Of a stretch of 39,578 bases of DNA, positions 34,346 through 38,195 are shown in pieces. Origin of the DNA: Escherichia phage mEp234. Under the pieces are notes generated by a model. It ran no database searches. It had not been told where the DNA came from and was given only the letters and a program-made list of their open reading frames with translations. The position numbers and the translations under genes were made by a program. The stretch is taken from the sequence record NC_019715.1. The stretch is one strand, 5' to 3'. Numbering within the stretch: position 1 is the stretch's first letter; each line of letters begins with the position of its first letter.

Positions 34346-34988
34346 TGGCAGCAAATACCGAAATATTTGGGTAGTTGGCGATCTGCACGGATGCTACACG
34401 AACCTGATGAAAAAACTGGAGACGATAGGATTCGACACCAAAAAAGACCTGCTTATCTCGGTTGGCGATTTGGTCGATCGCGGTACAGAGAACGTCGAAT
34501 GCCTGGAATTAATCACATTCCCCTGGTTCAGAGCTGTACGTGGAAACCATGAGCAAATGATGATTGATGGCTTATCAGAGCGCGGAAACGTCAATCACTG
34601 GATGCTTAATGGCGGTGGCTGGTTCTTTAATCTCGATTACGACAAAGAAATTCTGGCTAAAGCTCTTGCCCATAAAGCAGATGAACTTCCGTTAATCATC
34701 GAACTGGTGAGCAAAGATAAAAAATATGTCATCTGCCACGCCGATTATCCTTGTGACGAATACGAGTTTGGAAAGCCAGTTGATCATCAGCAGGTAATCT
34801 GGAACCGCGAACGAATCAGCAACTCACAAAACGGGATCGTGAAAGAAATCAAAGGCGCGGACACGTTCATCTTTGGTCATACGCCAGCAGTGAAACCACT
34901 CAAGTTTGCCAACCAAATGTATATCGATACCGGCGCAGTGTTCTGCGGAAACCTAACATTGATTCAGGTACAGGGAGAAGGCGCATGA
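34323..34988 (+). CDS. ninI: NinI serine/threonine protein phosphatase
   Basis: 221 aa from ATG 34323 ([25 protein letters not shown]...GNHE), metallophosphatase motifs; matches lambda PPase as recalled. Confidence 0.9.
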
Positions 34989-35608
34989 GACTCGAAAGCG
35001 TAGCTAAATTTCATTCGCCAAAAAGCCCGATGATGAGCGACTCACCACGGGCCACGGCTTCTGACTCTCTTTCCGGTACTGATGTGATGGCTGCTATGGG
35101 GATGGCGCAATCACAAGCCGGATTCGGTATGGCTGCATTCTTCGGTAAGCACGAACTCAGCCAGAACGACAAACAAAAGGCTATCAACTATCTGATGCAA
35201 TTTGCACACAAGGTATCGGGGAAATACCGTGGTGTGGCAAAGCTTGAAGGAAATACTAAGGCAAAGGTACTGCAAGTGCTCGCAACATTCGCTTATGCGG
35301 ATTATTGCCGTAGTGCCGCGACGCCGGGGGCAAGATGCAGAGATTGCCATGGTACAGGCCGCGCGGTTGATATAGCAAAAACAGAGCAGTGGGGGAGAGT
35401 TGTTGAGAAAGAGTGCGGAAGATGCAAAGGTGTCGGCTATTCAAGGATGCCAGCAAGCGCCGCATATCGCGCTGTAACGATGCTAATCCCAAACCTTACT
35501 CAACCCACCTGGTCACGCACTGTTAAGCCGCTGTATGACGCTCTGGTGGTGCAATGCCACAAGGAAGAGTCAATCGCAGACAATATCTTGAATGCGGTCA
35601 CACGTTAG
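34985..35608 (+). CDS. Q: Q late-gene antiterminator
   Basis: 207 aa, zinc-binding CRDCHGTG...CGRCKG; matches lambda Q as recalled; followed by a PR'-like promoter. Confidence 0.9.
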
Positions 35609-35650
35609 CAGCATGATTGCCACGGATGGCAACATATTAACGGCATGATA

Positions 35651-35679
35651 TTGACTTTTTGAATAAAGTTGGGTAAATT
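35651..35679 (+). promoter_or_regulatory. late promoter PR' (qut region follows)
   Basis: -35 TTGACT (35651-35656), 17-bp spacer, -10 TAAATT (35674-35679), ~45 nt downstream of Q; matches lambda PR' as recalled. Confidence 0.7.
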
Positions 35680-35717
35680 TGACATCAACGATGGATAAAT
35701 TCACTCGTTAAATAAAG

Positions 35718-35746
35718 CCCTGAGTTAATATCTCGGGGTTTTTTGC
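35718..35746 (+). terminator. terminator close to PR' (tR'-like)
   Basis: CCCTGAG-ttaatat-CTCGGGG (one G:U) followed by TTTTTT, about 55 nt after the predicted PR' start. Confidence 0.55.
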
Positions 35747-35887
35747 GTTTTAAGCACGGCCTTTCTGAAAGCACATCAAACCAAATACCAGACAGACAAA
35801 AATAATCAACTTATCCGCTGTGGCTACGGTGCGGTGTGCTTTGCATAAAAGAAAACCAGCGCAATGGCTGGCTTCGTGAAAGCGGGT

Positions 35888-35922
35888 GGCATGAGGTTGC
35901 CCTAACAACCTCCTGCCGTTTT
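35888..35922 (+). terminator. long imperfect stem-loop plus UUUU upstream of S
   Basis: GGCATGAGGTTG-ccctaa-CAACCTCCTGCC (11 of 12 bp) then GTTTTG; 121 nt upstream of the S start. Confidence 0.4.
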
Positions 35923-36042
35923 GCCCGTGCATATCGGTCACGAACAAATCTGATTACTAAACACAGTAGCCTGGATTTGTTCTATCAGTAATCGACCTTA
36001 TTCCTAATTAAATAGAGCAAATCCCCTTATTGGGGGTAAGAC

Positions 36043-36366
36043 ATGAAGATGCCAGAAAAAAATGACCTGTTAGCCGCCATTCTCGCGGCAAAGGAACAAG
36101 GCATCGGGGCAATCCTTGCGTTTGCAATGGCGTACCTTCGCGGCAGATATAATGGCGGTGCGTTTACAAAAACAGTAATCGACGCAACGATGTGCGCCAT
36201 TATCGCCTGGTTCATTCGTGACCTTCTCGGCTTCGCCGGACTAAGTAGCAATCTCGCTTATATAACGAGCGTGTTTATCGGCTACATCGGTACTGACTCG
36301 ATTGGTTCGCTTATCAAACGCTTCGCTGCTAAAAAAGCCGGAGTAGAAGATGGTGGGAATCAATAA
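36043..36366 (+). CDS. S: holin S (class I, dual start)
   Basis: 107 aa [20 protein letters not shown]... with Met1-Lys2-Met3 dual start; matches lambda S as recalled. Confidence 0.95.
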
Positions 36367-36826
36367 TCAACGTAAGGCGTTCCTCGATATGCTGGCATGG
36401 TCAGAAGGAACGGATAACGGACGGCAGAAAACCAGAAATCATGGTTATGACGTCATTGTAGGCGGAGAGCTATTTACTGATTACTCCGATCACCCTCGCA
36501 AGCTTGTCACGCTAAACCCCAAACTCAAATCAACAGCAGCCGGACGTTATCAGCTTCTTTCACGCTGGTGGGATGCTTACCGTAAGCAGCTTGGCCTGAA
36601 AGACTTCTCCCCCAAAAGCCAGGACGCAGTGGCATTGCAGCAGATTAAAGAACGTGGCGCTTTACCGATGATTGATCGCGGTGATATCCGTCAGGCAATC
36701 GACCGTTGCAGCAATATCTGGGCTTCACTGCCGGGGGCTGGTTATGGTCAGTTCGAGCATAAGGCTGATAACCTGATTGCAAAATTCAAAGAAGCTGGCG
36801 GAATGGTCAGAGAGATTGAGGTATGA
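36350..36826 (+). CDS. R: endolysin R (lytic transglycosylase)
   Basis: 158 aa [35 protein letters not shown]..., matching lambda R as recalled. Confidence 0.95.
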
Positions 36827-37260
36827 GCAGAGTAACCGCGATTATCTCCGCTCTGGTTATCTGCATCATCGTCTGCCTGTCATGGGCGGTTAATCATTAC
36901 CGTGATAACGCCATTACCTACAAAGAGCAGCGCGATAAGGCCACATCCACAATCGCTGACATGCAGAAGCGTCAACATGATGTAGCAGAACTCGACGCCA
37001 GATACACAAAGGAGCTTGCTGATGCTAACGCGACTATCGAAAGTCTCCGTGCTGATGTTTCTGCTGGGCGTAAGCGCCTGCAAGTCGCCGCCACCTGTGC
37101 AAAGTCAACGACCGGAGCCAGCAGCATGGGCGATGGAGAAAGCCCAGGACTTACAGCAGATGCTGAACTCAATTATTACCGTCTCCGAAGTGGAATCGAC
37201 AAGATAACCGCGCAGGTTAACTACCTGCAGGAATACATCAGGACGCAATGCCTGAAATAA
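36823..37260 (+). CDS. Rz: i-spanin Rz
   Basis: 145 aa, N-terminal TM helix [23 protein letters not shown] then coiled coil; lambda Rz-like with a divergent C-terminal half. Confidence 0.9.
37022..37207 (+). CDS. Rz1: o-spanin Rz1 (embedded in Rz, +1 frame)
   Basis: 61 aa from ATG 37022 (SD GGAG); lipoprotein signal with lipobox VSAC and proline-rich mature part; wholly inside Rz. Confidence 0.8.
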
Positions 37261-37466: not shown

Positions 37467-38195
37467 ATGTCCAATATCATCCCGATTGATTTCGAAGGCC
37501 ATCCCATGCGTTTTTCTGACGATGGCTGGTTTGACGCGACTGCGGCAGCTGACAAGTTCAACAAGGAGCCGGCTCAGTGGCTTAGGCTTCCTGAGACTGT
37601 CCGTTACATCGAGGCGTTAAAGAGTAGATATGGGAATATCACATATGTAAAAACCAGCCGCGCTCGCAAAGACCGTGGCGGCGGAACATGGCTTCACCCA
37701 AAACTGGCGGTCAGATTTGCTCGATGGCTTTCTGTAGATTTTGAGATCTGGTGTGATGAGCAAATTGACGCAATCATTCAGGGTTCCGTTCATCATATCG
37801 ACGATGAAAGAATAAAGGCTATTTTCCTTCTGGATAAATCTCAGCCATGGGAAAAGAGGTTTAGCGATCCGTTTTATTCTGCGATGTTCAAAATGTCAGG
37901 GCTGCCCCGCCATCGACCAGGTCGTCGCCCAGCACTATTTGGGATGATCAGTGCCAAGTGGGTATATGGCCCGGTATTACCACCAGAAGTATATGCAGAG
38001 GTTAAAAGACGGCTGGCTGCGGGAGACAAAATCCATCAGCACCTTAAACCTGACGCGCTGACATTGGTTGAGCGACAGATCATTGCCGTTACCAGCATTG
38101 CCAATGGGTGCTCTGATTATCGTGATTTCGAAGCGCGTTGCATGTCGGCATTCCAGGTGAAAGGGCAGATGAAATTGCTCTATGCGGCGGCCTGA
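37467..38195 (+). CDS. KilA-N domain protein with uncharacterised C-terminal domain
   Basis: 242 aa from ATG 37467 (SD AAGGT); N-terminal ~100 aa fit KilA-N (IPIDFEGHPMRF...TWLHPKLAVRFARWLSVDFEIW); C-terminal ~140 aa unknown. Confidence 0.65.
   Translation: MSNIIPIDFEGHPMRFSDDGWFDATAAADKFNKEPAQWLRLPETVRYIEALKSRYGNITYVKTSRARKDRGGGTWLHPKLAVRFARWLSVDFEIWCDEQIDAIIQGSVHHIDDERIKAIFLLDKSQPWEKRFSDPFYSAMFKMSGLPRHRPGRRPALFGMISAKWVYGPVLPPEVYAEVKRRLAAGDKIHQHLKPDALTLVERQIIAVTSIANGCSDYRDFEARCMSAFQVKGQMKLLYAAA

Follow-up and report, generated by a model that had tools for sequence, protein, structure and literature searches.

The region between the antiterminator gene Q and the lysis genes of phage mEp234 is, with a probability that we put at roughly 0.86 from its sequence, the P22-type form of the Q-dependent late regulatory cassette of lambdoid phages, here mEp234/HK106, a form in which an intrinsic terminator follows the late promoter PR' so closely that the predicted leader RNA is only ~58 nt long. 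The feature itself is the P22-type tR' of the lambdoid late switch, and as such it is already known and annotated. This reading is based on the sequence elements, their conservation, their homology to the site in P22 and their modular distribution. Q-dependent cassettes consist by definition of the Q gene with PR', of a sigma-dependent pause element and a terminator, and of the late genes (PMC9388147); these parts are treated in turn below.

Gene context

The window, that is the whole stretch of 39,578 nt that was analysed, is apparently a complete phage genome; both its halves are 100% identical to the mEp234 record PV340539, to which it is circularly permuted. Phage HK106 shares ~99% identity with the window over most of its length, and the region described here is identical in HK106 and mEp234. 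The local gene order is ninG-ninH-ninI-Q, followed by a non-coding gap of 434 nt and the lysis genes S, R and Rz. Immediately upstream of the late cassette the ORF list gives a 207-aa antiterminator of the lambda Q family (34985–35608, plus strand), annotated in HK106 as "late gene regulator Q", of which 205 of 207 residues (99%) are identical to the Q protein of the lambda-type phage HK630. The first late gene, S (36043–36366, plus strand), was also taken from the ORF list and is a holin gene in the annotations of both HK106 and mEp234. A 51-aa ORF with a GTG start (35836–35991, plus strand) covers the conserved stem-loop described further below; its counterpart in HK140 is labelled hypothetical protein and it is probably not a gene.

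The late promoter and the pause element

A consensus scan of positions 34500–37000 revealed one promoter-like site only, PR', located at 35651–35679 on the plus strand and consisting of a -35 box (TTGACT, 35651–35656), a spacer of 17 nt with the Q-binding element and a -10 box (TAAATT, 35674–35679). Judged by its sequence it is a sigma-70 promoter whose spacer harbours the Q-binding element. All 29 nt are identical to Plate of P22, and 27 of the 29 to PR' of HK630, where both mismatches fall in the spacer and the hexamers are the same, confirming the match to the lambda hexamers that the first-pass annotation had reported. In the HK106 record the site carries the remark "similar to coliphage lambda PR' with 2bp mismatch", and the promoter is annotated in HK106 as well as in P22.

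For comparison 88 PR' loci were collected, from 80 IMG/VR contigs encoding this Q and from GenBank phages. Downstream of the -10 box a putative -10-like sigma-dependent pause element, AACGAT, was identified at 35687–35692 (plus strand), covering +1 to +6 of the predicted transcript; its position is that of the P22 feature "P late RNA 5' nt", and it is invariant in 25 out of 25 distinct short-leader variants, among which the two or three bases directly 5' of it vary freely. Just 5' of the pause element lies a -35-like TTGACA (35679–35684, plus strand), whose TTGAC is invariant in 88 of the 88 loci while the sixth base and the gap vary. By the established work on lambda (PMC9388147), TTGACA would be the repositioned site for sigma region 4.

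The gap between TTGAC and AACGAT is 2 bp in the window and 1 bp in most relatives. The difference is a 1-bp insertion within 35680–35686, the stretch that separates the -10 hexamer from AACGAT (TGACATC versus TGACTC or TGACCC), and is common to the window, HK106, HK97 and a few IMG/VR loci. Of the pause context, the G at +7 and the C at +16 are retained, while +17 is an A where lambda has a G; going by the sequence and the literature, this A may make the pause weaker than that of lambda. Together, the insertion and the A at +17 might alter the behaviour of the pause.

The predicted leader RNA and its terminator

The top terminator-like site in 2.5 kb is the putative intrinsic terminator tR' at 35714–35744 (plus strand), with its stem at 35717–35724/35732–35739, a loop at 35725–35731 and a run of six T at 35739–35744. 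The core stem, GCCCTGAG/CTCGGGGT (35717–35739), comprises 8 GC-rich bp closing a 7-nt loop, and flanking A and T bases can lengthen it to 35714–35742. The hairpin region folds with -15.1 kcal/mol (z = -4.45 in a shuffle test), the core stem with -12.2 and the extended stem with -14.6 kcal/mol. Past the pause site and 299 nt ahead of S, the first late gene, the cassette thus has an intrinsic terminator. A hairpin with a U6 run had earlier been placed at 35718–35746; the structure and its six T are present, with the coordinates corrected to a core at 35717–35739 and a T run at 35739–35744.

Counted from A35687, the start as annotated in lambda and P22, to the end of the T run, the predicted constitutive leader RNA, an analogue of 6S RNA, has a computed length of ~58 nt (35687–35744, plus strand). 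The same measurement gives 193 nt in HK630, which matches the classical 6S RNA, in agreement with the earlier prediction of about 58 nt as against ~194 nt for lambda 6S; the site in P22 is annotated likewise. The whole leader folds with -20 kcal/mol (z = -4.75; none of 200 shuffles was as good) into a 5' hairpin, an AU-rich linker UUAAAUAAA of ~7 nt, the terminator hairpin and a U6 tail (-19.9 kcal/mol for this layout). In the RNA folds the 5' hairpin, at 35687–35709 (plus strand), is formed by pairing of AACGA with UCGUU, and it is here that the homology to lambda ends.

BLAST matches to lambda records cover 35640–35709 only, running with three mismatches past CAACGATGG to CTCGTT, where similarity ends. 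The divergence from lambda, which had been set at CAACGATGG, therefore begins ~15 nt further downstream, after CTCGTT at 35709. AACGAT and the first 23 transcribed nt are conserved between lambda-type and short-type leaders, and among the 25 short-leader variants the sequence from AACGAT up to the hairpin is essentially fixed. From +24 no similarity between the window and lambda was found until homology resumes at 35872 and continues into S, the replaced segment being ~160 nt in the window versus roughly 400 nt in lambda. The possibility that the leader is a sequence homologue of lambda 6S RNA was rejected, as similarity stops at 35709 (+23) and the terminator hairpins are unrelated; because only the first ~23 nt are common to the two RNAs, the leader is an analogue of 6S RNA and not a shortened homologue.

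When comparing the 25 short-leader variants the terminator stem was found to be nearly fixed while the loop occurs in four versions, a pattern that fits a functional stem but gives no covariation by itself. Three singleton changes occur in the stem, of which one, from C to T, is that of the window, another leaves HK022 with a U-U mismatch and the third is seen in epsilon34. The change in the window makes the closing pair G-U instead of G-C and lengthens the T run, which is 6 against 5 in most relatives, and gives a core stem of -12.2 versus -15.2 kcal/mol for the consensus. No compensatory changes were found in the stem within these 25 variants, the sequences being too alike. Adding phages ES18 and SE1 gave two upper-stem pairs that are changed on both sides and still paired, and in an alignment of 10 terminator sequences 97% of the cells are paired, against 23–71% for slid registers. 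The covariation in these alignments is supportive, not strong, both compensatory pairs coming from ES18/SE1 and probably representing one event.

Relation to P22 and lambda

In the P22 record BK000583 (NC_002371) the homologous positions are annotated as "P late or P R'", a qut site, an RNA 5' nt at 37887 and tR' at 37917–37945, the last with the label "t late or t R'; antiterminated by gene 23 protein action", implying a leader of ~59 nt. The same terminator is annotated in the record of phage Emek, while the records of HK106, HK140, HK022, HK97 and mEp234 give the promoter and qut at most and no tR'. The likeness to P22 extends from the identical 29-nt promoter over the shared AACGAT and a leader that is alike save for a few bases, with the stem GCCCTGAG/CTCGGGG in P22, to a distance from RNA 5' end to terminator end of ~59 nt in P22 and 58 nt in the window. 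Over 241 nt, including sequence 3' of the terminator, the two are 80.7% identical, which places the module of the window in the P22 type. They differ in the loop (TTAATAT in the window, TTTAACCG in P22), in the closing pair and T run (G-U and T6 in the window, G-C and T5 in P22) and in the stretch from the -10 hexamer to AACGAT, which is one base longer in the window. The phages themselves also differ; the window phage has E. coli as host, an HK97-like siphovirus virion and the lambda S holin, whereas P22 is a podovirus with gene 13 as holin.

Sy et al. 2020 (PMC7547250) name lambda, 21, phi80, 82 and P22 as phages whose late promoters give rise to short RNAs under antitermination control, and credit the one of P22 to Roberts et al. 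1976. Termination without Q and read-through with Q at tR' of the window are predicted, with support from the P22 annotation and from Roberts et al. 1976 as cited in that paper.

With lambda the window shares the Q family (99%), the promoter hexamers, the pause element, the first ~23 transcribed nt and the sequence from 35872 to S, and the proposed logic is the same, with a constitutive short RNA stopped at an intrinsic terminator that Q overrides. The lambda-type leader differs in its length of 193–194 nt and in its longer, unrelated terminator hairpin (-26.9 kcal/mol).

Distribution and proposed mosaic origin of the short leader

Among the 88 loci the short leader is the commonest type with 46 cases, followed by the lambda-type long leader with 37 and a third type with 5. 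These numbers and the annotations in P22 and Emek do not support the view that the very short leader is unusual. At least 80% of the 241-nt module is present in 77 phage-collection records, including HK022, HK97, Sf101, P22 and epsilon34. A match to the module, partial or complete, is present in 547 of 5,426 complete E. coli genomes, and in 265 of these it extends over at least 80% of the module. A scan for the 5' leader in one genome per species gave one E. coli match together with 13 chance matches. The BTP1 prophage was considered as a proxy for transcriptome data and rejected, since its late leader carries tRNA genes and is of a different type.

The third leader type was seen in five IMG/VR loci (L030, L036, L047, L065 and L080), which have the same Q and PR' and the pause element AAGAAT followed by GGCAGATTTATATCCGTTCACATTCTTTCAGTTTTT. 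More than 1 kb of other sequence with an ORF (MLKREDALRLF...) precedes the holin gene, and no obvious strong terminator was identified in these five. In every leader type the pause-element sequence has a downstream complement with which a 5' RNA hairpin can form; the pairing is AACGA/UCGUU in the lambda and short types and AAGAAUG/CAUUCUU in the third, which resembles a compensatory change between types.

Comparison with more distant phages suggests how the short leader arose. In ES18 and SE1 the Q type, the promoter, the leader and the upper stem all differ from those of the window, but the lower stem, the T run and the downstream sequence are shared. The tR' hairpin, T run and downstream sequence were seen to follow unrelated Q/promoter modules in ES18 (L006, 787–811), SE1 (L106, ~385–410) and phage 29485 (L107, ~402–430). 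At least three unrelated promoter/leader modules hence occur upstream of the tR' cassette, those of the lambda/P22 type, the ES18/SE1 type and phage 29485. In other loci (L009, L014, L015 and L040) the sequence switches directly after the T run, and in L014 and L040 it is the post-tR' sequence of lambda that follows. A tRNA-like stretch in the hybrid locus L014 was discarded as a tRNA, ARAGORN making no tRNA call.

From these sequence comparisons the tR' terminator appears as a mosaic unit of its own, which recombines independently of Q and the Q-utilisation module. In the window the joint consists of the Q-utilisation segment (promoter to +23), AAATAAA and the terminator cassette, and the leader would be short because a recombination joint has put a generic late-operon terminator cassette 7 nt past a minimal Q-utilisation site.

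The leader as a possible regulatory RNA

It is conceivable, and in our judgement unlikely, that the ~58-nt leader is in addition a trans-acting regulatory sRNA in lysogens, perhaps bound by Hfq, like StxS or IsrK of Gifsy-1. PR' is constitutive in lambda, the tR'-terminated transcript of Stx phages is processed to a 74-nt Hfq-bound sRNA with targets in host and phage, and antiterminated promoters have been proposed as a general source of sRNAs (PMC7547250). The leader resembles an sRNA in its succession of 5' hairpin, AU-rich linker, terminator hairpin and U6 tail, and with a module as widespread as in the E. coli genomes above (547 of 5,426, 265 covering at least 80%) an effect on the host could be selected. 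The conservation that would speak for such a role is nonetheless fully explained without it, from +1 to +23 by the Q-utilisation site and in the stem by termination, and the linker comprises only ~7 nt, while the U run is only 5 in most relatives. An exact-complement k-mer search for antisense matches to the phage's own transcripts gave a longest match of 11 nt, which was reached or exceeded in 103 of 200 shuffles and is thus no more than chance would give.

Like the predicted window leader, StxS, IsrK and IsrJ are short RNAs from a promoter beside a Q-type antiterminator gene, with an intrinsic terminator, in lysogeny (PMC7547250, PMC4825925). They belong to other Q families and have no sequence homology to the window leader; the 74-nt, Hfq-dependent StxS arises by cleavage of a longer primary transcript, and for StxS and IsrK a regulatory function has been demonstrated, whereas the leader is predicted from sequence only.

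Searching the whole window against Rfam at gathering thresholds gave no match. A permissive search around the site gave a sub-threshold match to the Hfq-binding sRNA isrJ (RF01393; 28 bits, E = 0.0014 for 201 nt searched), which taken by itself would favour a regulatory RNA. The score lies below the gathering score of 37, the 5' end of isrJ is aligned on the -10 hexamer of the window and hence out of functional register, and homology to isrJ was rejected. It was also rejected in the functional register, where the isrJ promoter and leader of Gifsy-1 show no similarity beyond a generic terminator.

A separate observation concerns IsrJ itself. In Enterobacter phage CobraSix (L091, 1469–1574) an IsrJ homologue starts 16 nt past the stop codon of an annotated Q-like antiterminator gene, with a promoter TTGCAA-17-TACATT that overlaps the end of that gene; because the homologue sits directly after a Q-like gene, IsrJ resembles a late-promoter leader RNA. 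Gifsy-1 has two such units (L090, 1765–1875 and ~925–1045), IsrK after antQ and IsrJ after anrP, and its antiterminator is annotated as similar to Q of phage 82.

A ~58-nt RNA ending at tR' would be made constitutively in at least 265 of the 5,426 E. coli genomes and in P22-like Salmonella prophages. Were it regulatory, it would affect host or phage expression in lysogeny, and the conserved 5' hairpin hiding the pause-element sequence would have a function at the RNA level. The case gains interest only if such an abundant short RNA proves to be regulatory.

Downstream elements and the position of the block

Downstream of tR' the sequence contains a second long stem-loop at 35882–35928 (plus strand; -25.8 kcal/mol, z = -4.4), with an inner stem at 35888–35917, whose sequence is shared with lambda. 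It had been placed at 35888–35922, and is real, with its limits corrected to 35888–35917 for the inner and 35882–35928 for the outer stem. It occurs in 76 related loci, where most pairs are conserved. At the pair 35892/35913 six combinations (T, A or G opposite C or A) occur across the relatives, of which only G-C and T-A are standard, and at 35897/35908 T-A, C-G and C-A occur, with an exchange of T-A for C-G in four sequences. The C-A cases in this stem would be G-U pairs on the opposite strand, so that selection may act on the structure of either strand.

This structure is at the centre of a second alternative, to which we give little credence, namely that the hairpin at 35717–35744 is a partial or incidental stop only, such as an insulator acting in both directions where mosaic segments join, and that the Q-dependent block lies downstream at 35882–35928 with its GUUUUG, or in tandem weak terminators. 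The second stem-loop is the stronger of the two, is common to lambda and directly precedes GTTTTG in the window, and the A-rich sequence 5' of the first hairpin could stop leftward transcription as well. Luk and Szybalski (1983) are said to have described tandem terminators downstream of lambda PR', which would fit such an arrangement. In P22 and ES18, on the other hand, the second stem is followed by TGATCTG and no U run while the first terminator is intact, and this retention of tR' where the U run of the second stem is lost argues for the first hairpin as the conserved terminator. The first hairpin moreover has all the usual features of an intrinsic terminator and is tR' according to the P22 curators. 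Given P22 and ES18 and the mostly non-standard pair 35892/35913, the second stem-loop is unlikely to be a conserved terminator; its role may lie in the processing or the stability of the leader of the late mRNA. The work of Daniels et al. from 1988 reportedly points to an RNase III site, for which this stem-loop would be a candidate.

An abundant small RNA just downstream of tR' in P22 infection could likewise be taken in favour of a downstream block. This RNA, "P22E", is a plus-strand species of 101 nt, abundant in P22-infected Salmonella and in outer-membrane vesicles (PMC13397905), and when its coordinates were mapped via alignment the homologous segment was found at 35763–35862 (plus strand). 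Probably P22E arises by processing of the antiterminated late leader. The same study of small RNAs in P22-infected cells gives ten phage loci, and the 58-nt leader is absent from that list (PMC13397905), which is a weak counter-indication to the leader as the infection was lytic with gp23 present.

On the minus strand a terminator-like hairpin with a CCAGC/GCTGG core followed by TTTTCTTTT was found at 35847–35875 (-12 kcal/mol, z = -4.0). It resembles a leftward terminator, is conserved in P22 and HK022 and lies at the right-hand edge of the segment that replaces the 6S region of lambda; no leftward promoter for it was found.

As consensus scans alone are not significant, with one promoter-like site against 3.7 expected and seven terminator-like sites against 2.4 expected, the weight of the assignment rests on homology and conservation. 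The idea that the promoter and terminator motifs arose by chance or have decayed, and that late transcription is controlled otherwise, could appeal to those scans and to terminator-like sites being common, and is hardly credible with a promoter identical to the experimentally studied late promoter of P22, an intact Q gene 99% identical to lambda-type Q and the whole arrangement conserved in the viable phages HK97, HK022, P22, HK106 and mEp234 and in hundreds of prophages.

Proposed mechanism of the late switch

For the Q-dependent cassette of the P22 type the following course of events is proposed. Host RNA polymerase with sigma-70 would start at PR', at about A35687, and would pause near +16/17, where sigma region 2 would rebind the non-template AACGAT. 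Without Q, the polymerase is expected to resume and to stop at the hairpin and U6 (35717–35744), releasing the leader of ~58 nt and leaving the lysis and virion genes off; that this stop is efficient, and that passing it depends on Q, is predicted. Q made from the early right operon would bind its element in the promoter spacer and load with NusA on the paused complex, after which the Q torus at the RNA-exit channel would block formation of the terminator hairpin. For lambda Q, binding to the spacer element, loading with NusA at the promoter-proximal pause and a torus at the RNA-exit channel have been described, and the RNA 5' end threads the torus by ~15–16 nt and terminator hairpins are prevented (PMC9388147).

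A compressed interval for the action of Q had been postulated in the first-pass annotation. The Q-binding element, TTGAC, AACGAT and the +16/17 region are all conserved and located upstream of +24, 5' of the divergence from lambda, and the 5' arm of tR' starts at +31. With all elements that Q requires upstream of +24 and the terminator stem from +31 onwards, no squeezing of Q action would be needed. Phages with the same spacing, P22, HK97 and HK022, are viable.

Implications

As annotation the point is a routine one, and the records of mEp234, HK106, HK97 and HK022 could copy the tR' feature of P22. In searches for "6S-like" RNAs of prophages a species of ~58 nt should be expected and not the 194-nt 6S RNA of lambda. 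The tR' cassette illustrates cleanly how mosaic joints in lambdoid phages coincide with the limits of functional elements, and for phages with a lambda-family Q the short leader is the typical state, the arrangement in lambda being the less common one.
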